NCBI GenBank assembly: GCA_002269645.1
Contig: NIVC01000273.1
Coordinates: 124,001-188,000 of the forward strand
Direction: 5' to 3'
Source of the DNA: Macrostomum lignano
Lineage: Eukaryota
Length of the DNA stretch: 64,000 bases
The notes below the pieces were generated by a model. The model was given only the letters and a program-made list of their open reading frames with translations, ran no database searches and was not told the origin of the DNA. The position numbers and the translations under genes are program-made. This document shows positions 15,010 through 43,062 of this stretch, piece after piece. Numbering within the stretch: position 1 is the stretch's first letter; every line of letters starts with the position of its first letter.

Positions 15010-15013
15010 TTTC

Positions 15014-15880: not shown

Positions 15881-15893
15881 CCAAAAAAAATAT

Positions 15894-18898: not shown

Positions 18899-21800
18899 AT
18901 GGCCACCTCATCGAGTCAAGAGGACGAGCTGGTGGACCCAGCTGTCAGCCACGAATTTGGACCGAGTGGTAAGTTTTTTCATTCAATTGCTGGTTTTATG
19001 AACTCATGCATTTCTGTTTGTTGCATTCCTGTCTCTTAGCAACGGAATTATTTATATTTTTCTCGCCTACACAACAATTCCCTAATGGTTCCCAACAGGA
19101 TTAAGCCGGAGAACTCACAATAATGAGACATTTTTATTCCTCATTAGATGAATTGACAAAAATGCGAAAGCAGAACTCCATCTATTTCTTCAATAATAAC
19201 TCTTCAAATTATTTTTTTACACTTATACGTAGCTCGTATTGATTAATAAAAAATATTAAATCTAGAAATAAGGTAGTAGGATAAATAGTATACTCGTAAG
19301 TGTAAAAAAGGGCAATAAAATATTCGTCTTCCATAACTCCCAGAGACATTTCTCATCATTTCCACTTTCCATTAATATTTTAATACTATCTTCCCTTCTT
19401 CAATTGTAGGACCTTCATTCACCCTGGCGTTAAAAACCAGCGCTCACGAAGATGTTCTTCAAGTTCATCGATTTACACCTGTAGCTGCCACTGAAACATT
19501 CGAGTTTCTCGATTTCTGCAAAATTGCAGTACAGCAGTGTCTTGAAATTCGCTTCGACTCTTCGGATAATTGCTCTGTTAAAGCTCAGATCAAACTGAAT
19601 TTGCACATGGTCAGAGTGCAGGCGTCAGAAGCTGTCAAGGGGGAGGATAAATGGATGAGCACACAACTCGGATTGGTGGTAGATATACAGGAGTTTGATG
19701 ATTGGTGGAGACAGCAGTTTACAGAGCTGGAGCGCAAAGTCGATGTCTACAACACCAACGGTAGTGGCTGGATAATTGAAAAAATTAATTTTTTTGAACT
19801 TTACTCAGCTCTCATCGAACGAGTTTCCTACTACACGGGGCATGCTGCGGAATTTATTCTACCGACTCCACTTCTTCGGAAGAAGGCGGTTATTTGTCCT
19901 CCAAGCAATGGTGTAAATTGCTTCCTTTACGCATGCCTTGCTTTTCTACACAAGGAAGACAACAAAATCAGCGCAACGCGAGTCTTCCTACACTGACTGG
20001 CTGGATGAACTTAACATGAGTGGAATTGACTTGCCAATCAATGTCACCGACCTTTCCATTGTTGAGAGACTGAACCCGAGACTTTGCTTCACGGTTTTCA
20101 TCTGGGAGAAAGATAGCGCTCAAGTCATCCGCTTGCCTACTGCAGCTACAATTAAAGATCGAGAAGTTGTTCTACTCTTATTTATTCCACCATCAGAAGA
20201 CGAGGCCTCGGGTCATTGGTGTGCTGTTTCAAGCATCAACAGGCTTCTTAATAGCAAGGCAGCTCTGCATCGGCGGAAGTGGTGAGAGCGCTGCTTGCTG
20301 CCCTTTCATAGTGATGCAGCCTTCGAAGAGCACAGCCGAGCTCCTTGTCAACCTGGAGTGATCAACGTCAAGGAAGAGTTGCCGGATGAAAGGAATAATA
20401 TTCTCCGATTCTCATCATGGGAAAAAACAATTAGTCCGCCATTTGTTGTTTACGCCGACTTCGAAGCATTGAATGCTCCATGCCAAGAAGATTCGATTGC
20501 TGGTATAGCAACGAAGAAGTTAACTGAGCACATTGCTGTTGCTGCTGGCTACATCGTGCTGCACAGAGAAGGGATGACTGGTCTAGCGCCCAGAGGAGCG
20601 GATGATAAAGTGAGCACTTTTGTCAGCGACGATCCTAATAAGTGCATTTCCGATTTCCTGCAATCGCTGGAGAAGCTCGCTCGTGAAGTTTACGGCTGGA
20701 ACACGGAGTTCAGTCGACAAGCAGCGATAAGAACAGAGATGGCAGGGCGACAGTTCAGAGAAGCCACAGCTTGCTGCTATTGTGGAAGCGAATTCACGGA
20801 GGGTCAAATAAACATTGGGATCACGACCACCTCAGCGGAGAATTTCGGGGAGCTGCGTGTGCTGATTGTAATATGAAGGCCAGACTAAAGAGGTCTTTCC
20901 CTCCCGTCGTGTTCCACAATTTCAGGGGGTACGATCTCCATCTCATGATGTCATCCGCTTTGGGTCTGATGGAGGGTTGGAAAATCTCCGTCATCCCTCT
21001 GAATCCAGAGCAGTTTCTGTCGATGAAAATCGAATTTAAAATCGGCGAGTATGAGAGTGAGGGCAAGATCAAGCCCCTAAATTTTACTATTCAGTTCATT
21101 GATTCGAATCAATTTCTTAATGCCAGCCTCTCACAGGTCATCAAAAATTTACCAGAGGCTGAATGTCGTATCACTAGTCGCCTACGCAGCAGATTCCCAC
21201 TGCTATCATCCGAAGTGCTTTTCAGTAAGGGAGTTTTCCCGTATGACCATCTTAAAAATTCAGACGTGCTGAAGGATGCCGTGCTTCCCAGCCAAGAAAG
21301 CTTCTACAATGCTCTGACTAAGAGCCACTGCACCAACTCTGACTATGAGCATGCTCAACGCGCCTGGCGTGAATTTCAGGTTTCAAATCTAAAAGAGTAC
21401 ATGCTGTGCTACCTCGAGCTCGACATCAGGCAGTTGGCTGATATTTTTGAAAATTTTCGCAAGATCAGCATGCAAGAGGATGGCTTTGATCCAGTCCATT
21501 TTATTTCGACACCAGGCCTATCATTCGCTTCGGCATTGAAATCCATCAAGTCAGGGATTGAACTGATAACAGATGCGCAGATGTATTCGCTGTTTGAGCG
21601 CGGCATTCGCGGCGGCATGTCGTTTGTTAACATCCACAAAGTGCAGGCTACCTCAGCAGCGGGCGCCAGCACTGGTGTTGACAGCAATGAGGATGCTGAT
21701 GGTGGCACTCCTACTATTCATGCCGGCCTCACCGAGCTTCTTGCTGTGGATGCAAACAACCTGTATGGACAGGCGCTCACTATGAACTTACCAGTCGGAG

Positions 21801-22980
21801 GATTCCGTTGGCTGGACGATGATGAGCTGCTTTTGTGGACTGAAGATCGCATTCGAGGACTCAAGCTAACCGATCCACTCGCCTACCTCTTTGATGTTGA
21901 CCTTGAGTACCCCCCAGAGATTCACGAAACCACCGAAGACCTGCCATTTGCACCCGAAAAGGCTGCCCCGAATTTCAGGGAATTTCCTGCATACATGCAG
22001 CAGCTGTGGGAAAAGGTCGGTACGGAGAACTCCACCTATCATCCGACAGAGAAGCTGATGCTCACTTGTCACGATAAGCCTTCCTATGTGGTTTATTTTG
22101 CTATTTTGGCGTTCTACCTTAACCATGGAATGCGGGTTAGACGCATCAATCGCATGATTGAGTTTCACCGAGAGCCTCTCTTTGCTGCCTACGTCGAGAA
22201 AAATAGCCAGAAGCGGGCTGCAGCGAAAACCAACTTCGAAAAGGATTTCTACAAGTTAAAGAATAATGCGCTGTTCGGCAAAACTATGGAGAATGTGCGA
22301 AAGCGGCGTGATATTCGAGTCTGCACCAACGTGGAAAAGGTAAAGGTACTGCTTGCCAAGCCGACAATTACCAATTTTATCATAATTACTGATTCACTAA
22401 GCGTTTTGGAACTGCAAAAGACAAAATTAAAGCTCGATCGGCCTATTTTTATCGGGCAATGCGTCCTAGACTTTTCGAGAATGATTATGTACGAGCTGTT
22501 TTACGACAAACTGAAGCCCTGGATAGAGAACGATGGAGGTGTCATCAAGCTATGCGGTGGTGATACCGATTCTTTCTTTCTCTCAATCAGCAACATGAGC
22601 GTTCAGTCTAAAGTTCTACCGCTGTTGAAGTCGAAGCAGCTGCTCGACACTTCAAACTATCCTCAAGAGCACGCGCTATTCTCTAATGATTTAAAAGCGC
22701 GACTTGGCTGCATTAAGGATGAAGCAGCCGGTGCTCGCTTTGAGGAGTGGCTGCTCCTAAGGCCGAAGAGCCGGCTCACAATGACTACCTAAGGGTGTTC
22801 AATGAGCTCTGCAGCCATTCTGTCGTTGTTCATCGTATTGCCAGCATCCATCACCGACTGTACACTTTGCAGCAGCGGAAGTGTGCCTTAAGCATTTGGG
22901 AAGACAAGCGCGCTTGGCTGAGCCCTAACTATAGTCTCCCATTTGGTCACATTTGGCTGCTACAGCAGCAGCAGCAGCAG
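18899..22980 (+). pseudogene. polB: Maverick M2 protein-primed PolB: putative intron 18969-19409, one nonsense codon, ~3 frameshifts and a deletion; last codons displaced to 33962-34008
   Basis: GSGW (terminal-protein region), VVYADFE, CCYC...HWDHDHLSGEFRGAACADCN, FHNFRGYD, IDSNQF, KGVFPYD, DANNLYG, KLKNNALFGKT, GDTDS, EDKR...SLPFGH across ORFs 19601, 19938, 20295, 20771 and 22747. Confidence 0.92.
18969..19409 (+). other. Putative phase-1 spliceosomal intron in polB (441 bp)
   Basis: G|GTAAGT donor after a 23-codon ATG exon; pyrimidine tract plus TGTAG|G acceptor; the joined frame is open into PolB sequence; AT-rich interior. Confidence 0.6.
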
Positions 22981-23023
22981 CCCGCTACGTCAACGGACGT
23001 AGGCGGCCACAACAGCACCGTGG

Positions 23024-23094
23024 CCGCGGTCATGGGCATCGCCTCTACCCGGCGACCCGGATGGTCGGACAGCTACGACCGTGCCAAGATGCCC
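23024..23094 (+). ncRNA. Candidate HDV-like self-cleaving ribozyme
   Basis: P2 GGGCATC/GATGCCC; P3 GCC/GGC around a 7-nt loop; P4 ATGGTCG/CGACCGT; J4/2 GCCAA; P1 CCG(C)GGTC/GACCCGG; all in canonical double-pseudoknot order. Confidence 0.7.
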
Positions 23095-23233
23095 AACCCT
23101 AGGCAACCGCCTCCCCCGGTACGCGACTACGTCACGACCGCGGTGCGAGGCGACGATCACTTCCCGGTGTCCAGACATGTCATCATCGTCATCAGCCTCC
23201 TTTTCTGGCTGCAGTTTGCTCGCCCGGCTCGCA

Positions 23234-23260
23234 GGCGACATTGAACTAAACCCCGGGCCC
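23234..23260 (+). other. 2A-like ribosomal skipping motif GDIELNPGP
   Basis: Exact D(V/I)ExNPGP motif preceded by LLARLA. Confidence 0.85.
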
Positions 23261-25583
23261 GACTGCGACTGCTGCGGTCGCCCCATCAGAAGAGGCTCGA
23301 ATTTCCTCTCCTGCCAGTCCGGTCAGTGCCCCACCCGCTGCCACAAGCAACCATCTTGCAGCAGCATCCGCCGATACCAACAGAACCAACGCTGGCTCTG
23401 CCAACAACACGGCGGACCAGAGCGCACCCCCCGCAACCCGCCAACCGCGGAGGCAGCTACCCCCGGCAACTGCAGTGCCTGCTCGGGCCCAATCCGCTCC
23501 GGCACCACTCCGCTACGGTGCGCAACCGCCGGCTGCACGTCAACCTGCCACCGTACAACCAAATGCAGCAGCATCCCGCGCTTCAAGGGCTGCCCTCGCT
23601 GGCGCTGCCCCGTCCACACCCCACCTGCGGTGAGGTCCCTGGCCGGCCGCCCGATCGCGGATAGGCGCCCCGCGGATGCCGACCACCCCCGCCCGCCGAC
23701 TCAAGACTCCGGCTGCTGCAGCGGGTGCTACTCTCTCTTCCGCTCTAACCACCACCCCATCGCCTGCCGTCAGTGTAATGCTAAGTTCCACAAGAAATGC
23801 ACCCGTCTCACCAGGCTCGCGGCCGACCTGGCTGCCACCCAGGGTCACTGGACCTGCCCGGCCTGCACCTCAACATAGGCGGCACACGAAACGGCAGCCA
23901 CTAACCAGACCACGACTCAGGCCCGGACTTCCACCCAGCGCGCCTGCCTCCGCACCACGACCCGCCAGGAATCCCTGCTGATTCTTCAGTGGAATGCGGA
24001 CGGCATCTCAACCCGGGTCGCCGAGATGGCAAACTGCATCAACTCTCTCAAACCAGACCTGATTCTGATCCAGGAGTCCAAACTGCGCCCGCAGGACCCC
24101 ACCCCCTGCCTCCATGGTTACGCCGCGGTTCGGGTGGACCGCAAGCGGCCGGACGGCGGAGGTGGGCTGCTCACATTCATCCGGGACTGTCTCGCATTCG
24201 AACGCAAGCCGGTGACGACCTGCGAGCCAATCGAAGCCTGCCGCGTGCGTATCTTCCTGAGCTCCAAGAAATCCCTGGACGTGGACAACGTGTACGTCCC
24301 GCCTGTCCGTGGCGGCGAAGAACACGGCGAGGTACTCTGGTCGACCCTCCCAACGGACGCCGACCTGCTCGCCGGCGACTTCAACGCCCACTCGGCCATC
24401 TGGGACCAGATCCAACCGGCCGATGGTCGTGGCGACACCCTGCTGGACTGGGCCACCGAACATGGCCTGACGGTCGTGAACGACGGCTCACCAACCAGAA
24501 TTAACCGCGGTACAGGCGGCGAGAGCACGCCAGACGTATCGCTTTGCCGCAACGCTTGGCATCACCGCACCTCTTGGAGTACCCTCGACGACCTCGGCTC
24601 CGACCACCTCCCAATCGCCATCAACCTCCGCTGCACCACCGAAAATCTCCATCGTCAGACCAGGACTTTCTGGAGAAGCACCGGGGTGGACTGGACGGCG
24701 TTTGCCCAGGACGTCGACTCCCAAGTCGCCACCTTCAAAAGCATTGGCGTCTCATTCAAACAACGAGTCAGCCGCCTCACGGAGGCCATCATAGCATCGG
24801 CACACCGCCACGTGGGGAAAAAGTCCTCCAAACGTCCAGCCCGGCCCTGGCTCTCCCAGGAGGCTCGCGAGGCCATCCGCAAGCGCAATCGCCTCCGCAG
24901 AGACGTCAGTAACCGCCGCGCCGAATGGCTCCAAGCCTGTGCGGACGCCGCTACGCTCTCCCGCGAGAGCAAGGAGAAGAGCTGGCGGGAATTCCTGTGC
25001 GACACCGACCTATGCCAAGATGCCACCAAGGCCTGGCGCCTCGTCCGCAGCCTCAGCGGTACCCCGGGTGACAACGCCACTAAGGAGGCCCTGTCCGTCA
25101 GAGACAAAACCTACTGCGACGACGCGAGTAAGGCTGAGATCTTCATCAAGCACTACGCGGCGGTCAACCGTCTCCACTTCAACAAAGCCGACCGCGCCGT
25201 CAACCGCTCCGCTAAGTCTGCCGTACGCGCCTGCGACACCAACCAGGAGGCGGAAGAGTGCGCCCCATTCTTGGAACACGAGCTCGACGCGGCCATCAAG
25301 CAACAACGAGCCACTGGCGCCCCCGGCCCGGACGATGTCTCGCCGCGCTTCCTCAAGGCCTTGGGCCCCATCGCCAGAGCCGAGCTCCTCGCACTGTTCA
25401 ACCAGTTCCTCTCCAGGGGCATCGTGTCACAGCAGTGGAGAAACGCCACCATCATTCCGCTGCTCAAGAAGGGCAAGCCACCCGGCGACTTGGCTTCCTT
25501 CCGCCCGGTCAGCCTCACCTCCTGCGTTGTCAAGCTGCTGGAAAGCATGATGACCGCGCGCCTCACCTTCTTGGCTGAGTCCC

Positions 25584-25794
25584 CTTAACTTGACTTAGCT
25601 GCAGGGCTGTCCCGGAGGGGACACAGCGGGAAGGCGCGGGCGCCCATTCCGCTAGTCCCTGAACGGCCGACGCGTCGCTATGGACGGAGGGTTGGCGCCG
25701 CCCAGGGAGGTCCCCCAGTGTCGCCAGCAGCTATAGTGCTCTCTGGAAAGGAGAGTTCAGCCCTGCGGGTGGCCCGAAGGTAGCGCATGAGCTG
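25584..25794 (-). mobile_element. 211-bp antisense retroposon (5'-truncated LINE end or SINE) with 12-bp TSD
   Basis: TGGCTGAGTCCC at 25572-25583 and 25795-25806. Minus strand ends CTAAG-TCAAG-TTAAG. Excision restores FLAESRGWLSQQQAGFR. Confidence 0.85.
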
Positions 25795-27919
25795 TGGCTG
25801 AGTCCCGCGGCTGGCTCTCACAACAGCAGGCCGGCTTCCGCCGACTCCGCAGCTGCGAGGACCAAATTCTGTCAGCTGTCCAGAGCATCAGCGACGGCTT
25901 CCAGAACTCGCCCATGCTGCGCTCCATCATGGCGTTTCTCGATTTTAGTAAAGCCTATGACAAAGTCTGGATTGAGCGCCTACTCCTCACTCTCATCGAG
26001 AAAGGTGTACCAGGGATCTACGTCCGGTGGGTCCGCGCCTTTCTCAGCAACCGCCAAGCCCGCGTGTGCGTCAACGGCACCAACGGACGCTACCGCCGGC
26101 TTCGCCAAGGGCTCCCGCAGGGCTCAGTCATCACCCCGCTGCTTTTCATTCTGTTTCTGGACCCTGTGGTGTCGGCCATCCCGGCGCAATTTGACGCCCT
26201 GATGTACGCTGACGACATCGCCGTCCGCAGCCAGAGCAACGACGTCGCAACAGCTACACTCGTCCTCCAAGACGCGGTCGACTGCGTCGCGAACTGGAGC
26301 CGAGCCAACCACATGGTGCTGAACCCGACCAAAAGCGAATGCGCCCTGTTCACTACCGACCCGCATCAGGCCGCCCTCCAGCCCAGCATCTGCCTCAACG
26401 ACACTACCATCCCGTTCTGCAGCAGCCCTCGTTTCTTGGGCGTCTATCTCGACCGCACGCTTTCCTTTAGCAAACAGGTATCCGAAGTTTGCAGAACAGT
26501 CGGCAACCGCTGCCGTCTCCTAGCGTGCCTCGCTGCCAGGTCGTGGGGCTGGTCTAAAGACAGTCTCCTAACTACCTTCAAAGCAATGCAACTCAGCATC
26601 CTGCACTACGCGTCACCAGCATGGCAACCCTGGCTGGCAGACACTGCCATGTCTCATCTCCAACGCGCGCAGAACCAGGCACTCCGTATTGTCACAGGTC
26701 AGCTTCGCACAACCCCGGCTGAGGCACTCCACCTCGAGGCTGGAGTGTGCACCGTCGCTACCATGCGCGACCAACTCTGCCTCGCGGCTTACGAAAAAGC
26801 GCTGCGCCTCCCGGAGGACCACCCGCGCCACCGCGCGGCCGCGGCCCAGGTTCCGCACCGCACGGCCAGAAACAGCTGGCGCCACCGCGCCCAGCAACTT
26901 CTGGCAAGAATTCCGGGAAACCTGGGCCGCCGCGAAGCCCTCCCACCGCTCCCCCGCTGCCCTTGGATCCACCTGGCGGCGGGCTGGACCGTGACGCGCT
27001 TGCTGTCGACCGTCGCCGTCAGACCCAGGCAGGCTGCTCACCCGACGACGCAACAAGACAGCGCTGACTTAGCCAGGGACCAGGCGATATCATCCATCCG
27101 CACGGCGAACGCTGACCTGGTTCTTTACACGGACGGCTCCGCCGAAGGCGGCTGCTCCGAGGGGGGCGCAGCATGCGTGGTCACCCGCGGCGACCCTGCC
27201 ACCCCGCAGGTCGTCGACACCATCGCTGCCCGCGGCGCCTCGCCGACCTGCAGCTTTGACGAGGAGCGCCGCGCCCTCGGACTGTCCATGGCCTGGCTCA
27301 ACGACCATCAAGTCACCGGCCGGGTGTTGATCTGCTCCGACAGTCGCGCACTGCTCGACGCCCTCATGAGCATCGTGCCGAGATGCTCGCTCCCGGACTT
27401 GAACTGCCGGGTTGCCTCCCTCACTCTCCAGTGGATCCCAGCGCACTGCGGCATCCCTGGTAATGAGATGGCGGACGCAGCCGCCAAGAATGCCGCATCC
27501 ATCGCTGGCGCGTCAGCGAGCACCTCGTACAGCAGCGCGGTGGCAGCGGTCAGGCGCGAGATCGTCGACCCGCCCCTGACCCACGCCCGCACGATTTCCG
27601 TGTACCGCGCGCTCAACCGGCAACGCGACCGCGCCGAACTTCAGAATCGTCAGGATGCCGTCCTCCTGGCGAGGCTCCGCGCGGGCCACTGCAGCCTTCT
27701 CCGCGCGTACAGTCGCATCGTCAACCCGACGGCGGACCCCATTTGCCCACGCCGCGAGGAGGGCCCGGAAGACCTCGAGCACTGGCTCGGTTGCCCGGCC
27801 CTCCGGAGGCTCCGCCTCGAGCTGTTCGACGAGGACACCCTGGACCCCGGGATTCTGACCGTCGCCCCCGCGAGGTCGGTGGCGCTTGCGAGGCGAAGCC
27901 TCTGACTCCCTCGGCGCCT

Positions 27920-28010
27920 TTGCCCCAACAACAACAACAACAACAGCAGCAGCAGCAGCAGCAGCGACGACGACGACGACAACAACAACAACAACAACAG
28001 CAACAGCAGG
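27920..28010. repeat. Compound (CAA)(CAG)(GAC) microsatellite between non-LTR elements 1 and 2
   Basis: Directly visible. Confidence 0.95.
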
Positions 28011-28045
28011 CTCGAGGAAACGACCCCGAGGGGACTGAAATCTGT

Positions 28046-28120
28046 CCCGGCGCGATCCGTCGGACCTCCACGAGGTGCGCCCTGGGCCCTACCACTTCCA
28101 TGGTGGGGCACGAACACGAC
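28046..28120 (+). ncRNA. Candidate HDV-like ribozyme (element 2)
   Basis: P3 ACC/GGT with loop TCCACGA; P1 GGCGC/GCGCC; GG for P1.1; 9-bp P4 GCCCTACCA/TGGTGGGGC; J4/2 ACGAA; P2 GTCGG/C(A)CGAC. The first two P1 positions do not pair canonically. Confidence 0.55.
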
Positions 28121-28216
28121 CGAATCCACATTGCTGTTGACTGGGCTGTCAAGGAGAAAGAAACAACGGGCGAGCTGGACCCGTGGGACTCGACGTGGAA
28201 TAGACTCCCACGCAGC

Positions 28217-28243
28217 GGGGACGTCGAGGCAAACCCGGGGCCG
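28217..28243 (+). other. 2A-like ribosomal skipping motif GDVEANPGP
   Basis: Exact D(V/I)ExNPGP motif. Confidence 0.85.
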
Positions 28244-31200
28244 TGGGCCGAGTGCGGCATCTGCAGCAGAGGCCTTAGGAAAAGCTGGCTCGTTTGTGCT
28301 GGCTGCCAGAGCCAGGTGCACCAAAAATGCGCTGGGATCACCAGAAGCGCAGCGGAGAAATGTAAGCAGGACAGTGACCAGTGGTGGTGCGAAGCATGCG
28401 CGCCAAAAGCTAGGTGCGTAGTATGCCAGCGATGCCGCGTTAAAATCAAGATGAACACCAAGGCGGTCGAGTGCTCGGACTGCAAGCGTGCTTTCCACAA
28501 AGCGTGCACAAAGCTAACACGACGACAGCTGAAGCTGCTAGGCGACAGGAGCGTCTGGACGTGCGGCGACTGCACGGCAGAGTGGCCGGCGGAGGACAAT
28601 GTAGTCAACACCAGGCTGAGGCCGGATGACAGGGGAAAATGCATGAAGTGCTGTAGGAAGTTTCAACAGCGCCAGATTCCGGAGCAGTGCTGCAAGTGCA
28701 AGCGGTGGGCACCTGCTAAGTGTACCGGCAAGAAGCGAGGGCGGCAGTACCACACTCAATGGACGTGTGAGGGGTGCCAGGCGAGTGAGCTGGAACCGGA
28801 AGTTGCCCGCTCCGATGAGACCATGGAGTCGATGACAACAGTGCAAGAGGAGACCGTGATAAGTATCCCACCGGACGACACCAACATACGAGACGTGCCA
28901 AGGTCACCGAACGGGTCAAGCCCAAATGACACCGAAGCGGAGGACAACGCTGCTGATAGCTGCCAGTGCTGTGTCTGCGCCAGCACGGTCGGCAACGAAT
29001 GGAGCTTGCGCTGTGCAATGACCAGCCAGTGGTGCCTCCTGAAGTGCGCCGGACTAGACATCAAAACCGTCAAGAGGCAGCCAAAAAGCTCCTGGACACA
29101 TTGGTGCTGCCCGGTGCACGCCAGGAGTGGTGATAGTAGCCAAACGCAGGGGGCCGGGAAGCACGTGCAGCTGCGGAGCGGACGGTGTGGCTACAAGGAA
29201 TGCAACCGCCGCCTAAAACCGGAAGCTTTCCTGCAGTGCAACAGCTGCCCGACAAAGGTACACGTGAGCTGCGGCGGCACAAGTAGCCGCGCGCTCATCG
29301 ACAAATGGCGCCGTGAAAAGTCGTGGGCATGCCGCCTCTGCCAAGCGGCCGGGAGAGCGCACACAGCTGAGCCCACAAGCAGAACAGAAAGGGCAGGCGA
29401 CGAACCAAAAGAGATGACCGGAGGGCGTCACATCTGCGTCTGCCAATGGAACTGTGATGGCCTGGCACCAAAGATCCCGGAGCTGCTGGCGTTCGTGACA
29501 GCTAACTATATTGATGTAGTAGCGCTGCAAGAGACTAAGACCAGAGCCGAGGATAAGCGGCCAAAGACGCCTGGATACCGGCTTGTACGGCAAGACAGGT
29601 AGCGAGCCCTGCCTAGGGGAGGAGGAGTAGCCTTCCTTATCAAGGAGGCACTACCCTTCCGGGTCGTCCGGCGCAGTGGCGAGGCGGAAGGCGTTGAGGG
29701 CGGCATGGAGGAGCTTGCCATTGAAGTTTTCTGGACCGACAGTGAACCTGTGCGGCTGTACAATTTCTACGCCCCCCAAAGGCCCCGGGCACGGATACGG
29801 CTATGGCTCAACTACAGAGTGGCCCGGACGACTGGGAACTCTGGCTCGGCGATGCTAATGCGCACAGTAACAGCTGGGACAGCGACGCTCACCGGGACGC
29901 CCGGGGAGAGATGCTGGAGGCTTGGATCAGTGAACGTGACGCCATCTTATTAAACGACGGCTCCCCGACCAGGCGTGGTAGAGGCACGGAGAGACCTAGC
30001 GCGCCCGACATCACGCTGTGCAGCTCTGCCATCTACCGACATTGGAGACCGGAGTGGAAAGTGGAGCGGAGGCTGGGCTCGGACCACGCCCCCATCCTGA
30101 TCAGGGGAGGGTCGCAAGAAGACAGCTCAGAGGAGGCGCGCCTTACCTGGCACTGGAAAAAGGCGGACTGGGAGGCGTACCGGAGACAGATCGAAGCAGC
30201 ACTGGCGGATAGCGAGCCGGAAAAGACGGTGGCAAAGGAGGAGGAGAGATTGCGCAAGATCGTGCTAGCGGCCGCGTACAACTGCATCGGACTGATTAAA
30301 CTGAATAGAGCGGAGAAGTTCAGCCTGAGTGCCGAGGTCGAGGAGGCGCTGGCGAAACGCGATGCCCGGTTATGGGGACTCGAGCAGGCGGCGGACGACA
30401 CAGCGGCCGCTGGCGGAAGCGGAAGTAATGCCGACGAGGACCCGATTACTAAGATCAGGGATGACCTTAGAGAGAAATGGTGGAGTCGGGTCACGCAGAC
30501 AAGAAGCGCCGAAGATATGTGGAAGCTGGTGAGCGGTTGTAAAGAGAAACCGCCGAGAGTCCCTGCTGAGGTCATAGCCCAGGGAGAGAGGAGGCATGTG
30601 AAGCCGGCGGACAAAGCCACGGCTTTCGCCAAGGCCTACGCCAGCATCAGCGACGTTAAGGTCCCGCGGGCTAACAGGCATGTCAAACGACAGCTGAACA
30701 AAGGACTGCGGCAGACAGGAAAGACCGGAGACCCAGTGATCACGGAAGTCGAGGTTAAACGAGCGCTGGAAGAGATGGACGGGAGCAAAGCCCCAGGGCC
30801 GGACAAAGTGCACCCGCAGCTGCTCAAGCACATACCGCCATCCGGTGTGGCCGCCTTTACTAACCTGTTCCAAAGATCATGGCAAAGGTCTGAAGTCCCC
30901 CAAAACTGGCGATCAGGCGAAATCATCCCGCTGCTGAAGGACGGATTGGACCCGGAGATCACATCATCGTACCGCCCCATCTGCCTGACAGCCACCATCG
31001 GGAAATGGCTTGAGAGGGTGGCCAGCAACCGGCTATACCACGCGCTGGAGAGCAGAGGCCTACTTGCCGAAGAGCAGGCGGGCTTCAGGGCCGGCCGCAC
31101 CACAACAGACCAAGTGCTCGCGCTGTGCCAGGACATCGCAGACGGCTACCAACTAAAGCTTAAAACGATCGTGGCGCTGTTAGACTATGCGAAGGCCTAC

Positions 31201-33194
31201 GACACGGAGAGACGGGCTGCTAGAGAAGATGCGGCGTTTAGGTATAGACCCGATGCTAATCCGATGGGTCCAGGCATGGCTCTGCAACAGGCTAGCCTGG
31301 GTCCGCCTCGGCAACGATCGCGGATGTACGGTGGTCATGAAGCAGGGACTACCCCAGGGCAGTGTGCTGTCACCGGTTCTATTCCTGATTTACATTAACG
31401 ACGTGGTGGAACAGGTAAACCAGCCGGTCAAGATCAGGTTGTTCGCCGATGACCTGGCGCTATGGGATCAAGCGGAGACGGTGGAAAAGGCGGCGAGAAA
31501 AATGCAGTTAGCGGTGTCGGACGTGGCGGAGTGGATCAGGAAATGGCTACTCCGGCTAAACCCGCAAAAGTGCGAGGTGGGCCTGTTCAGCCTGAACAAC
31601 AAGGACCGAGTGGAAAATGTTGCGCTGACCATCGAGGGAAAGCGCCTCCGCACCACGGAGGTCATCAAATACCTCGGCGTCTCCATCGACCGACGACTGA
31701 CGTTCGCCGAGCACATCCGCCTCTGTGTCATCAAGGCGCGAAACCGGATCAGCCTGCTGAAGAGACTCTGCGCCATAGGCGCTGGTCTACCCTTGGAGCT
31801 ACCCAGAACGGCGTACGTGGCGCTGGTCCGACCTGTCATCGAGTACGCGGCGGCGGCGTGGAGCCCGTGGGTGTCGGAGACGCAGTGGGCCAAGGTAGAA
31901 CGATGCCAGAGGGCGGCAGCCAGAGTCGTAACCAGACTGCCTAGCTCGACACCGGTCGAAGCGCTGCTCGAAGAGGCTAGGCTCCAGGACTTGCGAAGCC
32001 GAGCCAGAGAAGCGGCTGTCAAACTGTACGATAGCTACCTCAGGCTCGCTGCAGAGGACAGTCGCAAACGCTTAGCCCGTGCGGAAGTCAGGCAACGCCA
32101 AAAGAGGACAAATTGGCGCCGGGAGGCCAGTAAAGGCTGGGCAGCTATCTTTGACACGGACCCGCCAGCAGAGGACCGCACGTGGACCACACCGTGGGAC
32201 GGCGGAGCGGCAAACCTGGTGTTCCCGCAACCCGGTAGGAGAGAAGTGTGGAAGGAGGACAACGAAAAGGTAGCGCGTGAGAGGCTGAGCGAATGCAAGT
32301 CGGACTTGATTGTGTTTACCGACGGGTCAGTCGACAAGGAAGGAAGAGGCGGGGCCGGCTTCAGCGTGTGGGCCGAAGGAGTTGAGATCGCAACAGGCAG
32401 CCACCCTGCAGGACCCGGCTGCTCATCGATGCAAGCGGAGCTTGCTGCGATCAAGGCGGCAGTCGAGTGGATTGACCAGCAGCAGACAGGGTGGAGCGCC
32501 ATCACCATAGCCTGCGACAGCTCAGCGGCACTCCAAGCGTTGGATACCCCGCCACGGCGCCGAAAGAGGCTGGCTAACGCGATCCGGACCGTGCTGGATA
32601 AGTGGACCGATAGGTCAGTGCGCTTCGTATGGGTGGCCGGACATGCAGACGTGGAAGGTAACGAACGAGCCGACGAGCTAGCGGCCAAGGGCCGCCCCCT
32701 GAACGGCTCGGATGGACCAGGATGGACGCCGGAAGCTGCAAAGCTGGAGATAAGGAACCGCATGCGGAGGCGAAGTGGATGGAAGCACGCCAGGTCGGAG
32801 GCGACTTATAGCGCCAGCGGACCTAACTGGCACATCGAGGCAAACTGGCCGGTGACGGAGAGGGCCGACTACGCTCGCTTCCGCGTAGGCCATAATACCA
32901 AGTTGGCGGCGTACGCCCACCGCATCGGCCTGGCTACCACAGCAAACTGTCAGCACTGCGAGCAAGGTGAACCGACGGTAGAGCACGTAACCATCGAGTG
33001 CCCGGCGTTGGATAGCGTCAGACGGCAACTCGGGATAACCAACCTGAGCACGCTCTGTAACGACCCGGAAGCCGGCCGCCGGCTGTGGAACGCATTTCAG
33101 CGACTGTAATGAAAGGTACTGCACCGAGGGGATAGCCAACAGCAACAGCAATGCGAAAAACAAACAAACAGCAACAGCAGCAACAGCAGCAACA

Positions 33195-33942
33195 TTCACG
33201 GATAACGCCAGAGAAGTCCGTAGAGCGGCGGCGGGTAAGTTCTGCAGTTCGCTGGTGGCGGAAGAAGTGGCGTTAGTGTTAGCGCTGGATTTTATCGAGG
33301 AAAAAAAAGCCCCGCAGTGCTCTTATCTGCACGGACAGCAAGTCCGCGCTACTTAAACTCAGAGGCGAAAAGACACCCCTGTCGGCCAGAATGTACAACA
33401 CCATCGGGAGGCTGCGCTGTGCCAGCCAGAGGACAGAGATCTGGCTACAGTGGATCCCGAGTCATATCGGTATCCAAGGAAACGAAGAGGCTGACCAGGA
33501 GGCAAAGGCGGCTGGAGGGATGTGCCAGGATCACACGGCCATGGACTGGAGTTGCGTCAAGAGGCAGATCCTCAAGAGAGGTGCCAGCTCGTCCTGTGAA
33601 GACAAGAGATTGGAGGCCGTGTTTGGAGAAAAGAGGGTGCTGTGCTCGGTAAACCGTAAAACGGAGGTGTTGATGGCTCAACTGCGTTGTGGGCACTGCA
33701 AGCATACCAGCTATTGGAGGCAGAAGGTGGGCCTGGACCCGGCCGGAAACTGCTCTTTTTGCGACGAAGAAGAATCGAAAGACCACTGGATGACGTGTAG
33801 TAGATGGGACTCTATCAGGATTCGGTGTGGAGTGGAAGGAATAAGATCGCTTCAAGACGAGCCCAAGGTTTTAAAATTCCTTCAGCTGGCCCACCCTCGG
33901 TGGCTCAGCTGAATGGTTTTCTCGCCGAAGACACACACACAG

Positions 33943-33975: not shown

Positions 33976-34573
33976 CAGAAATCATCAAAACGGCGCCGAC
34001 TACTTTGAAATTGAATAATGAGTACAACAAGCTTGCTAAACAAAAACAATAATTTCTTTGCGATTTCAAAGTTTCTTTCTTTAACATTGAATAAAGGTTA
34101 ACCGCTAATCTAAATAGGATTTTTTCCAAATGCAATAAAAAGTTTGATCATCTGCTGAGGCTAGCAACAATTTTTTGCTTCACATTATTTACTTACAATT
34201 GCGCGATGATGATAATAAAACCAATGCTTCGTTAGTGGTGGTGGTGGTGTTTGCGGTGATGGCATGTGAGAGTTTTATTTTTTTCTAATTTTACCTGTAC
34301 TATGTGGTTGGTTTTTTCGAATCCTGATATTGCTTTATAAATTTTATTATATTCCCTCCGCTTTTGGACTATTTTTCTTTTCCTATTTTTGTAGTGGTTT
34401 ATCTGCTTGCTCGTATTTGCTTTTAGCTTGCTATTTGTTTATCTCTACAAGATGTTCACTAGTGGTTTTTCAATGCAATAAAAAATGAAGACAAAAAAGC
34501 TAGTGCATGAGAGAGAATTAGTTTGAATATTTTAATTAAACAAGCCGCGATTTATTCTTTCTTTTTATTTATT

Positions 34574-35140
34574 TCAGTTTGAAAGCAAGCAAGCTAATAG
34601 GGAACGGTCTGATTGTAGCATATGCTTAGACTTTGCTCCGCTGAGCACAAATGAGCCATTGTGAAAAAGCGTACACTTGCAGTATTGAAGCTGACAAGCT
34701 AAAGCAGTAAAACTTTCAGGTTCATATTTCGCATTCGGTAGCACTTCACAGAGGTTTCTTAGTGATAGAGCCTTGGGCAAGTCTATTTTTCCATAAGCAG
34801 TAATAGTCTTAATTCGGACACAAACGGATTGACGAGGCAGCAGTTGAGGCCGAACTCTGCGATGCAGCATAGCCACGAAGCGACGGGCAGCCTTGACTGA
34901 GGCCGAGTAGCTCCGGGCGCCACAGATACTCAGTTGTCCAGTCGGATAGAGCAATAGAGTCACTCTGGGACTCCGCATCCTCTTGATGAGCACTCGGGGC
35001 CAAACGGGACGATAGATGACATGAGCCATGCTGAGAGCCAGTTCCCGCAGAGGCAACTGGGCACCCCTGCCTCCAGCCAGTCTCAGATCCACGCCGCCAA
35101 CCAGATTGGTCACTCGCAGGGCTGTCGCAGGTGTACTCAT
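34574..35140 (-). CDS. TATA-binding-protein (TBP)-like protein, 188 aa, intronless
   Basis: Two TBP-type half-repeats: VTNLV...Y.P.W...MRSPRVTLLLYPTGQLSICGARS and IKTIT...YEPESF...TLFHNGSFVLSGAKS. Confidence 0.85.
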   Translation of the reverse strand: MSTPATALRVTNLVGGVDLRLAGGRGAQLPLRELALSMAHVIYRPVWPRVLIKRMRSPRVTLLLYPTGQLSICGARSYSASVKAARRFVAMLHRRVRPQLLPRQSVCVRIKTITAYGKIDLPKALSLRNLCEVLPNAKYEPESFTALACQLQYCKCTLFHNGSFVLSGAKSKHMLQSDRSLLACLLSN

Positions 35141-35654
35141 TTAGAGAGTCCTTTCTGTCAGTGGTGCTGTCTTTGAGAGCCTTTGAGTGATGCGGGCACA
35201 CCTCGCTTCTTAAGTTGATACAGAACTTTGGCTTCAGCCAGTTGTAGTAGAGCAATACATTTTTCACTGCACAACCAGTATCAGATGCTTGAATCAAAGG
35301 TGATCCTAGATCCTCTAGGTTGTACACCTGTCTGCCAAGCAGCTCAGTCAGAAAGATGGACTTCTTCACCCCGCTTGTCCAGGTGGGGCCGTAAGCAATC
35401 TTTAGAATGTCATTTTCCAAATGCATGTACGGTCGGGATCCATCTGTCCACTTGAAATGATGCAAATTCTTTGAGAGCTTTCTGTAATGCACCTGCATCT
35501 CAGGTGAGATTCGCTCCCATGAGAACGGAGAGGCGTACACGTGATGAGTGATATGGTAACTGCCTGCCCGGACTTGGGCAATGGCCAGCTCCTTCACAAC
35601 GAAATCTCTGCTCGATCTCTCACCTGGGAAGCCTTGGAAGTCAATATAGTTCAT
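34809..35654 (-). CDS. Maverick-associated DEDD-like 3'-5' exonuclease-fold protein; C-terminal ~110 codons overlap the TBP-like gene
   Basis: YIDFQGF...FVVKELA...H.F.W.DG...Y...K..FL..LL...V.NLEDLG.P pattern; the fold assignment is inference. Confidence 0.55.
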   Translation of the reverse strand: MNYIDFQGFPGERSSRDFVVKELAIAQVRAGSYHITHHVYASPFSWERISPEMQVHYRKLSKNLHHFKWTDGSRPYMHLENDILKIAYGPTWTSGVKKSIFLTELLGRQVYNLEDLGSPLIQASDTGCAVKNVLLYYNWLKPKFCINLRSEVCPHHSKALKDSTTDRKDSLNEYTCDSPASDQSGWRRGSETGWRQGCPVASAGTGSQHGSCHLSSRLAPSAHQEDAESQSDSIALSDWTTEYLWRPELLGLSQGCPSLRGYAASQSSASTAASSIRLCPN

Positions 35655-35666: not shown

Positions 35667-36386
35667 TCAAGATGCCAGATATCGGGAAGCCGACTCAGTT
35701 CCCCTTCTTAAATAGTTTTTCCTGCTCAGGTGTAGCCAGGCTCTCCCACTTCCGAATCCCTTAACTGTATGATGAGCAGGGGCGGCCTCTGGAGAAACAG
35801 CAGGTTTAGAAATTAGCTGCCTAACTGACTTTCCTATGGCCGAAGCTGGGATGTTAAGCTTTTTGTCTTGGAGCAATGAGAAAAACTCACTCCAGCCCAC
35901 CGGCTCGCTGGCACATTTAAAATCCCTCACGGCACTGTGAAACAAATCCAGAATGTTTGAGGAGGGTATTGTCTTCCCAGAAATTTGCGCCTCGCCATTT
36001 TCGGACACCCGAATCAGAAAAGGATTGCCAGATAGGATGGCCCATAGACTGCGGGCTCTCGCTTTAAACTTCTGCGGCACGGATTGGGTGATCTTTTCCC
36101 CCCAGCTGCTGGGTGCAATATCAGTTTTCAGCATCTTTGCATCACTAGCAGGTACCGCACCATCCTTTCCAGTCCGCTTGCGCTTGGCCAGCAAACTCTT
36201 CATCGCATCATGGTACATGGCAGCTTCCACATCGTCTGGGCAATCCTGGGCAAGCAAAATATCAGTGCATTTCCTCTGCGCATATCTCACGGCAGTGTCG
36301 AGTTCAGACTCGACTGGCTTCAAATTCTGTGTGAGCATGTCGTACTCTGATTTGGGGAGCAGAACCATCTCTGAGAACTTATTCAT
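35667..36386 (-). CDS. Conserved Maverick protein (PZ-like), 239 aa
   Basis: M.LLP N-terminus and ...NGEAQISGKTIPSSNILDL...P.GW..F...L...NIP...I.K block; lies within the capsid module. Confidence 0.6.
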   Translation of the reverse strand: MNKFSEMVLLPKSEYDMLTQNLKPVESELDTAVRYAQRKCTDILLAQDCPDDVEAAMYHDAMKSLLAKRKRTGKDGAVPASDAKMLKTDIAPSSWGEKITQSVPQKFKARARSLWAILSGNPFLIRVSENGEAQISGKTIPSSNILDLFHSAVRDFKCASEPVGWSEFFSLLQDKKLNIPASAIGKSVRQLISKPAVSPEAAPAHHTVKGFGSGRAWLHLSRKNYLRRGTESASRYLAS

Positions 36387-37154
36387 TTTGCTTCTTTTTC
36401 TTCACTAGCTTTATTAGAATGTAGAGAATTTTGATAAAACCCGTATTTAGCAGATCCGCAGCTCTTCTATGTGTAGAAATTTTGCGGATTATTTGCTTTT
36501 TCTTCACTAGCTTTATTAGAATGTAGAGAATTTTGATAAAACCCGTATTTAGCAGATCCGCAGCTCTTCTATGTGCAGAAATTTTGCGGATTATTTGCTT
36601 TTTCTTCACTAGCTTTATTAGAATGTAGAGAATTTTGATAAAACCCGTATTTAGCAGATCCGCAGCTCTTCTATGTGTAGAAATTTTGCGGATTATTTGC
36701 TTTTTCTTCACTAGCTTTATTAGAATGTAGAGAATTTTGATAAAACCCGTATTTAGCAGATCCGCAGCTCTTCTATGTGCAGAAATTTTGCGGATTATTT
36801 GCTTTTTCTTCACTAGCTTTATTAGAATGTAGAGAATTTTGATAAAAACGTATTTAGCAGATCCGCAGCTCTTCTATGTGCAGAAATTTTGCGGATTATT
36901 TGCTTTTGCTTCACTAGCGCTGCCTTTTCAGTGAGTGAGAACGACAGAGTGTTTTGCAATAGGTTATAGCAGGCCTCAATGAGAAATTCATGTACGGCTT
37001 TTGGACCCGCTCTGATCAACAAACGTTTAAAGCTGATGGAATATTTCGGTGACGCGAGAACATCAAACAAACTTTCATGTGAGTCGAATGTTTCCATTAT
37101 CATTAGTGTTGCAGAATATAGAGCAAATGGCAAAATCTCGGCTGTTATTCTCAA
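36379..37154 (-). pseudogene. Small basic Maverick protein with an amphipathic C-terminus, amplified as a 102-bp repeat; 1-bp deletion in the first unit
   Basis: LLIRAGPKAVHEFLIEACYNLLQN...KAALVKQKQIIRKIS...GFIKILYILIKL. Confidence 0.6.
36401..36918. repeat. 102-bp tandem repeat, 5 copies
   Basis: TTCACTAGC recurs at 36401, 36503, 36605, 36707, 36809 and ~36910. Confidence 0.95.
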
Positions 37155-37804
37155 GTGTAAACCAGGTGGGGTCGCTGATTGGGCAGGATTCGAGCCCGGA
37201 CCCGCAGCTCATCAGGGGTGGAAGGGTGAAAATCCAGGAGCAGGTAGGCTCCCCTGCTGTGCGATGTCACGTGCTTGAACACTGACAGCAGAAAGCCGGG
37301 CTTCTCAGCAAAACACTGCCTGCCCAGCGCCACAATCTGCAGCTGGTCTCTGGGGTTCTTCATGATCACAAAGTACATCGCATTCAGACTCATTGTTCGC
37401 AACTCCTTCCCTTTAAAAAATACATTTTGGGTCAGCATAACCAGAAAGCAGGGCAAATGATGGACAATTCCAGTGAAAACATTTCGCATTGCAGCAGAAT
37501 TGGAAGTTTCTTCAATCAGGTCATCAAATACAACCAGGTCATTGGGTCTCAGTGCGGTCTCGATACTGCTGGGAAATCCCTGCTGCAGGTGCACGCCGAG
37601 ACTGCTCAGCTCAAAGTGTGCTGCTTGTGAAATTCCGTAGTACCACAGATCTCTCCCAGGCTTCACATCAAACATGACATCCTTGTATTGTATCAGATGT
37701 TTCACGAAGGTTGTTTTTCCTGCATTTGTAGGCCCGCTGACAATCATGCAGCTTCCCTGTCGCAGGCGCACATCATAACAGTTTATCTGCTCACGTGATT
37801 CCAT
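37151..37804 (-). CDS. A32/FtsK-like packaging ATPase (M2), 217 aa
   Basis: Walker A GPTNAGKT, Walker B VVFDD, then HH..C.L..LTQN and KNPRD. Confidence 0.9.
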   Translation of the reverse strand: MESREQINCYDVRLRQGSCMIVSGPTNAGKTTFVKHLIQYKDVMFDVKPGRDLWYYGISQAAHFELSSLGVHLQQGFPSSIETALRPNDLVVFDDLIEETSNSAAMRNVFTGIVHHLPCFLVMLTQNVFFKGKELRTMSLNAMYFVIMKNPRDQLQIVALGRQCFAEKPGFLLSVFKHVTSHSRGAYLLLDFHPSTPDELRVRARILPNQRPHLVYT

Positions 37805-37885
37805 CGCCTGTTGAGCTAAATCCCTAATTTTGAAAGTCTAATTAAATTTCTTTTTTCTTAAGCAACTCTCAAACCTTTGCAGCAT

Positions 37886-38362
37886 TCACTCATTAAAGTG
37901 GCTCTGCTGATTTGCATGGAGGTGCCGCAGAACCCACTCAAACGAGCGCTTGAAACGAAACTTTTGATAGGCAAACAAGAGACAGAACAAACCGCATTTA
38001 GCAGAGTTGCAGCTCTGAATTCGATTCACATTGCTACGTAAGTAGAATGGAGAATACCAAAAGGATTTCAGTGCTCTGTGAATGATGTCTAAAGTGCTTG
38101 AGTCCCAGCCCAGAGAGTTAAAGAGTTCTATGGAATTCTCCTTATTAGCAAAACAAACCACCCAGTGACCAAAGGACGAGCCGTACTGAAGCAGAAAGAA
38201 AATAAACTTACATCGAGATAAATTTCTTTTGAGAGTTGCTCGCTGAATAATGTTTAAAGCATAAGATGTTTTACGAGTATTTATTGAATTCAAGACAATA
38301 ATTAAACAGTTATTTTGTGGCAAAAAGCTTTTAGCCAGTTTAAGCAGTTGAAAAGCATCCAT
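37886..38362 (-). CDS. Adenain-type cysteine protease (M2), 158 aa
   Basis: GHWV, FNSLG (Asn where Asp is usual), IQ...KCGLFC. Confidence 0.85.
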   Translation of the reverse strand: MDAFQLLKLAKSFLPQNNCLIIVLNSINTRKTSYALNIIQRATLKRNLSRCKFIFFLLQYGSSFGHWVVCFANKENSIELFNSLGWDSSTLDIIHRALKSFWYSPFYLRSNVNRIQSCNSAKCGLFCLLFAYQKFRFKRSFEWVLRHLHANQQSHFNE

Positions 38363-38385: not shown

Positions 38386-39720
38386 CTAGGATGGAAAATC
38401 TAGCAGAATCTCCCTGTGCTTGGTGACTTCAATCAGTGAGTCATACAGGCACATAACAATCAGAGATACAAGCTCCTCCAGGGCCTGTCGGAAGCGAATC
38501 TCCAGCCGCAAATTTCCCTCCTTCTGTCCGTACCACAGGGCCGCTCCCTCGGGCGTGAGATCGAATGTGAAAGCTGTGTTGCCGTTGGAGAACAACTGGT
38601 AGGGGACCCACGGAACCGAGTTGCTAGGGCTGGCTGACTGACAGCTTTTCAGGTAGTGCAAGTACTCTCTCACGAATGAATTATTCTCAGGTGCAAATGC
38701 AGCGTGGCACATGGCTTCACCACATTTCTTTAGTGCTAGCTGGCTGAGGTTGAAGCTCTGGAACTCGAAGGGGCTGGAATGGTGATGGCCATTGAAGGCT
38801 CGGTGGTTCACGAAGACCAGCATAACGAACTTCGGCAGTTTGCCATGGGTGAATCATTCAATGTTTTTTGACTGAATTCCCTGGGGTAGAATGAAGTTTT
38901 GCATTTCGGTTCGCTCGATGGGGTAAAGTGCGTTCTGATTGGTCAGTCCCTGCTCATGCGCCAGGCTGATGTGAGGCGCCACTTTGACTCGGCGCAGGTT
39001 CAGAATGCAGTGGGAGATTTCCATTCGGTAGGCTGTGTTGTTCTCATCTGGGGTTCGGATGGCAAATGCAGCATCACTGGGCATCAGCTTGATGTGCAGG
39101 TGTAAATTGTTCAGCAGCAGAACAGGACACTGGAAGATGTCGCTGAGCAGCGGTCCCGCATACTCCACCCAGCGGGACTCCCTGTGTCTCTCGACATGCC
39201 CCTCAGCAGCAGTTTCGGGTTCCAGGAATCCGGCGGGGTAGAACTTTAACTGCTGAGCATCGGATGAGCCCATGAGAGCTTTTAGGTAGGCATGGTAGGG
39301 GTAGAGCTGGTCTCCACCTGATACAACGCGCTGGTTGATGCTCACGATTACATCTGAGAATGCCGTAGACAGGACAAAGTTTTCTGGATGCACCCCACTG
39401 TCTCTGCGCTCAGTGACAACTCCATCGGCATTCCGAACCTCCTCCCTCATCAAAGCCCCGCCAAGCCGGACTAGGCGACAGCGAATATACAGGAATGAGC
39501 TCAGCAGATCAGTGTACTCATCAGCCGATGGATGGCAGTCGAATTCAATAGGTGAGTTAGTAGTAATAGAGTTCACGGGGTGAATATCAACATACGTGGA
39601 TTTTTCAATAGCAGTCTGCAGCACGGGGGACTTGAACAAATCGAGTCTCGGGTTGAATCCGTAAGCCATTGCTATGAGAGTGAGTCCAGAACACGCTTCA
39701 GTGTTCTGGACTTTGCCCAC
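38386..39720 (-). pseudogene. Major capsid protein (M2), frameshift near 38850; probable start MAYGF at ~39672
   Basis: LDLF..P..QTAIEKS.YVDIHP...PIEF, YPYHAYL, LHLHIKL, YPIERT, PFEFQ.FNL, TAFTFDLTP, GNLRLEIRF. Confidence 0.9.
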
Positions 39721-39950: not shown

Positions 39951-39964
39951 CTTTTTAGCCTGTC

Positions 39965-40063
39965 AGTAGTAGTGTCATATAAGGGGTTGCGCCACACTTA
40001 TTGCTCGGGCGCATTTGGCGCCAGCTCGCTGGATGACTCAACCCCTTATATGACACTACTACT
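39965..40063. mobile_element. 99-bp element bounded by perfect 25-bp inverted repeats starting AGTAGTAGT (Maverick-type termini)
   Basis: AGTAGTAGTGTCATATAAGGGGTTG (39965-39989) and CAACCCCTTATATGACACTACTACT (40039-40063); no TSD. Confidence 0.6.
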
Positions 40064-42876: not shown

Positions 42877-43062
42877 GTTTTGAAGAGCTGCTCAATCTGA
42901 TTTTCCTAACTTCAATTCTATGGCAAGCTCTGCTTACCATAGCCAACCGGAACGGCCTGTGGCCAGCCAAAGACTTATAGAGACTTTCCTCACTCGCGAA
43001 AGTTTAGGTTTGGATTGGAGTGTCAGCGTGGTAAGCACTGCTTACCATCAGACTGCTGGCGG
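40566..43062 (+). mobile_element. piggyBac-family transposon (left boundary uncertain)
   Basis: Transposase ORF; inverted repeats at 40566-40588 and 42931-42955; palindrome GGTAAGCA..GCTTACC at 40581-40597 and 43030-43046; element sequence ends ...GCGG before ATAA, where Maverick PLA2 coding sequence begins. Confidence 0.75.
40725..42413 (+). CDS. piggyBac transposase (PGBD4-like), 562 aa, intact
   Basis: SVDES, FKQYIPTKRAKYGIK, FVDKWF, YNRCMGGVDRMD and a C-terminal CRVC...CPEC...LC...CF...H domain. Confidence 0.95.
   Translation: MAALMEEFESFSDSELMTSDEEEDIMSEDDYGESDGQSTAEETEELSWHSVVAGHDVQANVHEFLGTPGLNPGICVPGDVEQATSFFLGLFLSNSLFEDLAKWTNRRAWAAIHSVNVNDLPRSFAQWRDCSANEVKKMLGMCLYMGSNKKAEMNEYWSTDSYYSTPYFQAPQALSRDRFKQLLGLLRFYDCAEDPIVNDPLFKIRPLLQALKEACINVYRPEEDVSVDESLVLYKGRLRFKQYIPTKRAKYGIKLYCACEAKSGYLYNFRVHSTPEENRRFDEQLQGDNLSFSEKIVVELCYNLLHQGYRIFVDKWFGSYRLSEYLLTQGTHLTCTVRADRGVPIELRQLHVPPNDVAFMRKDGVLAVKIVERKESGLKTLYLLDTKEAAERVQTRRVVRGGAETVVQKSRSVLTYNRCMGGVDRMDSHLQPHLPGRKTTKWFLKLGLHLFLQMIRNAWIVHSRCGGEKTFAKFLEASIRELVERTGTSRKRPAAGIQAAPGGPVSPHFPTKIVARDSQPRPTKRCRVCYRAGSSKRTIYCCPECPGEPGLCLEACFQQWHA

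Follow-up and report, generated by a model that had tools for sequence, protein, structure and literature searches.

The stretch analyzed here, referred to as the window, comprises 64,000 nucleotides of Macrostomum lignano (contig NIVC01000273.1, positions 124,001 to 188,000 of the forward strand). Part of it is occupied by a copy of a Maverick element with the following features:

17263 to 39964, no strand assigned: Maverick copy, truncated at both ends, with neither integrase arm nor termini, delimited by homology to sister copies
20873 to 22792, plus strand: C-terminal part of the protein-primed DNA polymerase B (pPolB) of the same element (PF03175)
22982 to 33938, no strand assigned: retroelement ORFs (endonuclease, RT, RNase H) inserted over about 11 kb and dividing the copy, from ORF content and homology
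34568 to 34573, minus strand: AATAAA, a candidate polyadenylation signal that abuts the stop codon of the TBP-like gene
34574 to 35140, minus strand: TBP-like gene, an intact ORF of 188 aa with two TBP repeats; key sites N12, W47/P48, Y65, K111, T112, E140, E142, F144 and F159
34809 to 35654, minus strand: upstream ORF of 281 aa with an N-terminal IDFQGF...VKELA domain and no Pfam hit, presumably exonuclease-like
35667 to 36386, minus strand: conserved Maverick ORF of 239 aa, function unassigned, from the gene string and sister copies
37151 to 37804, minus strand: putative packaging ATPase, Walker A seen, no Pfam hit
37886 to 38362, minus strand: adenain-like cysteine protease (PF00770)
38386 to 39669, minus strand: putative major capsid protein, two ORFs in this copy, from motif and synteny, no Pfam hit

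The pPolB part is parted from the capsid gene string by the retroelement insertion and belongs to the same element; it matches the polB adjoining a sister TBP gene at 97.8%, and in the sister copies pPolB is convergent with TBP. A sister copy of about 15.9 kb (G000:C2389) has 132-bp TIRs and a 6-bp target-site duplication, as is typical of Maverick/Polinton elements, and encodes both pPolB (PF03175) and an rve integrase (PF00665). Its gene order is PC4-like, integrase, putative minor capsid, 170-aa ORF, putative major capsid, protease, ATPase, 105-aa and 230-aa ORFs, exonuclease-like, TBP and convergent pPolB, in which the capsid, ATPase and exonuclease names are our assumptions. The morphogenesis module was recognized by Pfam for the protease and by the Walker A motif for the ORF that we take to be the packaging ATPase; the capsid ORFs gave no Pfam hit, and we presume their identity from motif and synteny. 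A second family of elements, B, keeps the order from integrase to TBP, with pPolB upstream and the PC4-like gene downstream. The PC4-like gene (PF02229, below cut-off) is found in both TBP-bearing families, at opposite element ends (L063:1935-2663; L035:8975-9670).

Several other repeats lie in and around this copy. A tandem array of units of about 102 bp (36390-36920), longer than in sister copies, is located inside the region of the 105-aa ORF. A Ty3/gypsy-like gag-pol ORF of 1304 aa (10192-14106, minus strand) lies between Maverick fragments, and a piggyBac-like transposase (PF13843; 40725-42413, plus strand) is flanked by short inverted repeats at about 40579 and at 42940-43049. A Maverick-associated ORF at 49347-50726 (plus strand) contains an F5/8 type C (galactose-binding) domain and is possibly a fibre or receptor-binding protein. 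At 39965-40063, a terminal hairpin starting with AGTAGTAG, from another repeat family with 47 matches, is inserted into the Maverick and truncates it. This hairpin also accounts for TCATATAAGGGG at 39975, which had been put forward from the sequence alone as a TATA motif targeted by the TBP-like protein. It lies outside the element, as homology to sister copies stops at 39964, and we rejected it as a promoter of this element.

The 188-aa ORF contains two stretches that match the TBP profile PF00352 (E 1.3e-21), and solved TBPs were matched at the sequence level too. The AlphaFold model (pLDDT 85, pTM 0.77) superimposes on archaeal and eukaryotic TBP structures with a TM score of about 0.8 at 22-25% identity, so that profile and predicted fold agree on the two-repeat saddle of the PF00352 family. 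The ORF is real and has a TBP fold. An earlier sequence-only reading had described an intact 188-aa ORF with both TBP half-repeats and no N-terminal extension at the end of a co-oriented capsid-module gene string, and had suggested modelling as a check of the fold; all of this held, with TBP as the last gene of the string on the minus strand. It had also noted that the gene is intronless. The gene is indeed a single open frame, but this has no diagnostic value, because the core of the host TBP likewise lies within one open frame of 219 aa. The host TBP (L059) is 26% identical to the TBP-like protein. Four contig sets presumed to derive from RNA span the TBP gene, but they also cover most of the element including non-coding parts, which makes them neutral as to expression. 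The one joint seen in them (35142-35202) has ends that are not canonical and likely stems from a different subfamily.

The genome contains at least 152 matches to the TBP-like protein (with 150 of 231 candidates scored), which is a minimum and gives no estimate of copy number. The TBPs of family B are 37-39% identical to those of family A and have their own set of copies. In 52 of 54 fetched TBP loci the exonuclease-like ORF lies upstream on the same strand, a count from best hits or subfamily representatives and not from a random sample; pPolB is convergent at 38 of 41 family-A loci. Pooled pairwise dN/dS values (NG86, 13 representatives) in family A were 0.15 for codons 1-110 and 0.17 for codons 112-188, the latter near saturation. 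For six copies of family B we obtained 0.19 in the part of the gene that is not overlapped by the upstream ORF and 0.50, from few changes, in the overlapped part.

In a tree of 31 rows, which kept 13 of 24 metagenome rows and had no giant-virus rows, families A and B join with support of 100/99 on a stem of length 2.3 within the eukaryotic group, with long-branch joins flagged. Either a TBP or a TLF may have been the donor. A profile search against 1.84 billion representatives returned nine hits with E <1e-30, eight of them from this lineage (some being mis-predicted fusions from this genome) and one a duplicated plant TBP; ordinary TBPs follow. Eight homologues of the element TBP come from Logan, ENA and JGI records (P0003-5, P0007-9, P0014 and P0016), and a scan of a viral contig set for their context found nothing. 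Scanning metagenomes yielded 34 loci of 24-38% identity; none of the 24 that we examined had a Maverick gene nearby, and we read these as cellular TBPs or fragments.

The element TBP is a fixed gene of two Maverick families under purifying selection. It had been suggested to be a captured, highly diverged basal factor, a view that linkage in 52 of 54 loci, low identity to the host TBP, the long-stem clade and purifying selection all support. That the gene is a passenger or a recent host retrocopy without function is extremely improbable. We found no point in favor of it: neither high identity to host TBP or TLF nor neutral decay was seen. The dN/dS values (0.15-0.19), the 26% identity to the host TBP, the shared position in two families that are only 37-39% alike and the related proteins in other datasets all speak against it. 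The three findings named in advance as fatal to the captured-gene view, namely lack of linkage to other copies, grouping as a recent retrocopy and neutral evolution (dN/dS is 0.15-0.17 in family A), did not materialize.

We then compared the residues of the DNA face and of the partner surfaces, for which we assume the roles known from yeast TBP structures, including those of the first and third Phe and the two central Asn. P48, Y65, K111, T112, E140, E142, F144 and F159 are invariant in 17 of 17 element-type sequences with identities down to 31%. Relative to canonical TBP, all 17 carry the DNA-face changes Phe to Pro48, Phe to Tyr65, Gln-Asn to Lys111-Thr112 and Thr to Cys73, and Val to Thr/Ser is also among the changes at central positions that we take to contact bases. 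N12, F144, F159, E140 and E142 are kept in all of them. Instead of the four intercalating Phe of canonical TBP, the element protein has P48, Y65, F144 and F159, and of the two central Asn only N12 remains, T112 replacing the other. The earlier reading had recognized the retained first and the lost second Asn. Its statement that the four Phe positions are all aromatic (W, Y, F, F) stands for Y65, F144 and F159; the first is Pro48 and not Trp47 in the ungapped alignment to the host TBP. Position 47, Trp in family A and His in family B, aligns to the Arg preceding the first Phe of the host protein. With one Phe and one Asn gone, the protein may bend DNA less strongly. In the host TLF three of the four Phe are gone, in a pattern unlike that of the element TBP.

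The partner surfaces are retained to different degrees. The N-lobe basic patch (TFIIA/Mot1/TAF1/Brf1) is partly kept in family A (R86, R87 and R94) and lost in family B. E140 and E142, present in 17 of 17 sequences, are the C-lobe glutamates of canonical TBP, described as a TFIIB-contact signature in the accessible part of PMC7221094.

No PF00382 (TFIIB) match was found among the element ORFs scanned, a search in which a very divergent TFIIB might be missed, and the element contains no recognizable TFIIB or RNA polymerase. Genome-wide, the TFIIB family gave 15 matches on 7 contigs; the two loci inspected are host-like, and the core of the host TFIIB is interrupted by an intron.

Upstream of several genes we noticed a short box of the form (C/T)(A/T)TAAGAA, a motif chosen after inspection. 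In the window it is found at:

35207 to 35214, minus strand: CTTAAGAA box, a candidate promoter element about 70 nt before the TBP start and inside the upstream ORF, present in 12 of 12 family-A loci
35705 to 35712, minus strand: TTTAAGAA box before the exonuclease-like ORF, from sequence and family-A comparison
37855 to 37862, minus strand: CTTAAGAA box before the ATPase, from sequence and family-A comparison

Across family-A subfamilies, whose integrase N-termini are 53-100% alike, TAAGAA begins 34-78 nt upstream of six genes: integrase (9/10), minor capsid (10/10, leaving out one mis-sliced row), ATPase (11/11), 105-aa ORF (9/9), exonuclease-like ORF (11/11) and TBP (12/12). The PC4-like gene has a variant of the box in 4 of 10 cases. 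Within 100 nt upstream of the major capsid gene (0/10), the protease (0/11), the 170-aa ORF (0/10) and the 230-aa ORF (0/11) of family A there is no box. In family B, CTATAAGAA precedes two genes (6/6 and 7/7) and TBP is preceded by the canonical TATAAAAG (7/7); no box was found before the major capsid gene (0/4), the protease (0/3) or the ATPase (0/5), the start of the last being unsure. Locus L063 has 8 box matches versus 1.09 expected. Over the whole window the box is not enriched (4 seen versus 7 expected).

A co-resident Maverick lineage served as control. Its 13 stretches from five loci gave no TBP profile hit, and in this lineage without a detected TBP the box occurs at 0 of 36 gene starts. 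The control copies are nearly identical, with about ten gene types, so that this amounts to one comparison. The TBPs of families A and B are only 37-39% alike yet share essentially one box, so that the two families provide no test of co-variation. In the TBP-less lineage (window 14000-17200 and 43000-64000; L136-L148), T-rich tracts followed by an A-run directly precede most start codons; they may serve as trans-splice acceptors or form another class of promoter.

The explanation towards which we lean slightly is that a Maverick TBP paralogue with an altered DNA face reads the candidate TAAGAA box and uses host TFIIB and Pol II. The element TBP would bind the (C/T)(A/T)TAAGAA box of its own element and, once bound, would bring host TFIIB and RNA polymerase II to the integrase, minor-capsid, ATPase and neighboring genes. 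We infer that the box would act as a promoter read by the element TBP, with TFIIB recruitment resulting in a late-gene switch. The conserved TAAGAA box and the retained TFIIB-contact glutamates lend indirect support to such a redirection of Pol II to element promoters. In family B, the canonical TATAAAAG before TBP would fit a two-step cascade. In family A, the location of TBP behind the same box is a bootstrapping problem; weak priming by host TBP or by read-through, followed by positive feedback, might resolve it. The major capsid gene, with no box close in front of it, would depend on read-through or on a start lying farther away. This and the box before family-A TBP are among the main difficulties of the explanation. 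The choice of the motif after inspection, its lack of enrichment over the window, the single control comparison, the sharing of one box by families A and B and the possibly weaker DNA bending count against it too.

If host TBP is the protein that reads the boxes, the element TBP may instead be a decoy or repressor, which sequesters TFIIB or further partners of TBP, or sits on promoters, and thereby dampens host or element transcription. The invariant TFIIB-contact glutamates next to an altered DNA face would suit such a protein, as would the part of the N-lobe basic helix kept in family A (R86, R87, R94), and family-A TBP shares its box with structural genes, as a co-expressed late product would. 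However, the DNA-face substitutions are invariant in both families and in the outside homologues, which fits a constrained ligand better than decay. Moreover, the control lineage lacks both box and TBP, and the basic helix is lost in family B. We regard this alternative as rather unlikely.

PDB titles include wild-type TBP on the G(-26) and T(-30) TATA variants, so that host TBP may itself read TAAGAA-like boxes, a further main difficulty for the explanation towards which we lean. According to another explanation, the element TBP is a general substitute that binds the same TATA-like DNA as host TBP, escapes Mot1/BTAF1, NC2 and TAF1, and boosts element transcription without a private code. The box is one or two changes off canonical TATA, and some or all of the N-lobe signature residues have disappeared, which parallels what the accessible part of PMC7221094 describes for viral TBPs. 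The invariant changes of Gln-Asn to Lys-Thr and Val to Thr/Ser, at what we assume to be central base-contacting positions, would be expected to shift specificity, and we consider a general substitute unlikely.

The TBP gene also overlaps its upstream neighbor, which the earlier reading had missed, as it had the link of pPolB to this element. Its first 332 nt (34809-35140) overlap the upstream ORF in a different frame, and this frame stays open across the first TBP repeat for 110 codons in family A and 129 codons in family B. Where a T would be synonymous in TBP but introduce a stop into the overlapping frame, T is used in 0 of 13 cases in family A and 0 of 12 in family B, compared with about 39% and 30%, respectively, at other sites of the overlap; past the overlap, T is frequent at such stop-creating sites. 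Resampling of this stop avoidance gave P values of 0.001-0.04. The extension of the upstream frame over TBP has no amino-acid constraint of its own. The stop-free frame covers the whole first TBP repeat in both families (window 34809-35140, minus strand; L036:9313-9701). In a few copies (L056, L057, P0010), indels fuse the exonuclease-like ORF in frame to TBP; these fusions are probably single-copy indels, assembly errors or decay.

Where the two TBP repeats join (nt 330-360), identity between subfamilies falls from about 97% to 52-72%, while the non-overlapped DNA upstream of TBP stays mostly at 93-100%. This drop points to recombination that swaps the C-terminal repeat with the pPolB arm. 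The breakpoint lies at about 34780-34810 of the window and is seen in L010, L017, L029, L032, L039 and L041. The alignments indicate that the N-terminal repeat moves with the capsid arm and the C-terminal repeat with the pPolB arm. This joint inheritance of the C-terminal repeat and the pPolB arm, together with the place of TBP in the morphogenesis string, would suit a non-transcriptional role, in which the saddle would bend element DNA or coat it during replication, in packaging or in the virion core. Such a role gives no reason for both TFIIB-contact glutamates being invariant, and the boxes precede start codons and are not at the termini, which makes it quite improbable.

Returning to the reading of the box by the element TBP, the observations can be put together into a broader, tentative claim, which we hold to be a serious possibility that falls a little short of probable. 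Some animal Mavericks may carry a one-protein orthogonal transcription switch, in which a minimal TBP core whose DNA face has been re-coded reads a private TAAGAA box and works with host TFIIB and Pol II. It would be the smallest viral late-gene system of its kind; each TBP repeat would be passed on with its own arm of the element, and the upkeep of the overlapping frame would influence TBP synthesis. Little has been written on how Mavericks turn on the genes for capsid and packaging, and a 188-aa protein together with an 8-nt box makes the question of a promoter code directly testable. If true, a natural TBP with changed base specificity and intact TFIIB contact would be a useful probe of TATA recognition. 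Three points moderate this interest: larger viruses are already known to have TBPs, a label for the gene has appeared once in print, and the link to function is so far a correlation. The element TBP is best described as real, functional as judged from selection and a variant of viral TBP, with a mechanism that we propose from sequence comparison.

Our literature searches turned up no work on a TBP or a promoter code of Mavericks beyond one label in a figure legend, and figures and bioRxiv supplements may name further TBP genes. A term search of the main texts of PMC10748475, 10.64898/2026.06.19.733378 and PMC8097293 gave no occurrence of TATA or TBP. The label is that of TBP in the legend of Fig. 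5 on MELD viruses with adintovirus-like PolB (Starrett et al. 2021, PMC8502044; preprint 10.1101/697771). As here, this would be a TBP-like gene in a mid-size Polinton-related genome, one that may or may not be homologous to the element TBP. However, TBP appears there as a legend abbreviation only, once in the main text and not in the one supplement file searched, and residues, selection and promoters are not analyzed in these parts of PMC8502044.

With cellular TBP and TLF/TRF2 the element protein shares the two-repeat saddle (TM about 0.8), the first Asn, both C-lobe Phe and the TFIIB-contact glutamates. It differs from cellular TBP in its 26% identity to the host protein, Pro at the first and Tyr at the second Phe position, Thr at the second Asn and the lack of an N-terminal tail.

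Like the TBPs of giant viruses (Nucleocytoviricota), as far as these are described in the accessible part of PMC7221094, the element TBP is divergent and has a weakened N-lobe regulatory surface. According to the same part, almost all giant viruses with a TBP also encode TFIIB, whereas none was detected in this element, which thus lacks the TBP-TFIIB pair. Fold matches in BFVD to giant-virus TBPs have 7-19% identity, and the model is closer to cellular TBPs (22-25% identity).

A functional parallel may be seen in the viral TBP of beta- and gammaherpesviruses. KSHV ORF24, in the accessible part of PMC12529657, is a TBP mimic which, with no RNA polymerase of viral origin, is proposed to steer host Pol II to a variant of the TATA box. 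ORF24 has several domains, acts within a viral complex of several proteins and does not have the TFIIB-contact glutamates, whereas the element TBP is a bare 188-aa core that keeps them. Because ORF24 lacks these glutamates, we do not place the element TBP, which is neither large nor multi-domain, in the herpesvirus family; the comparison is one of fold and a working analogy, with no homology claimed beyond the fold, and what the two proteins may have in common is the use of a TBP-like saddle to direct host Pol II to a variant box.
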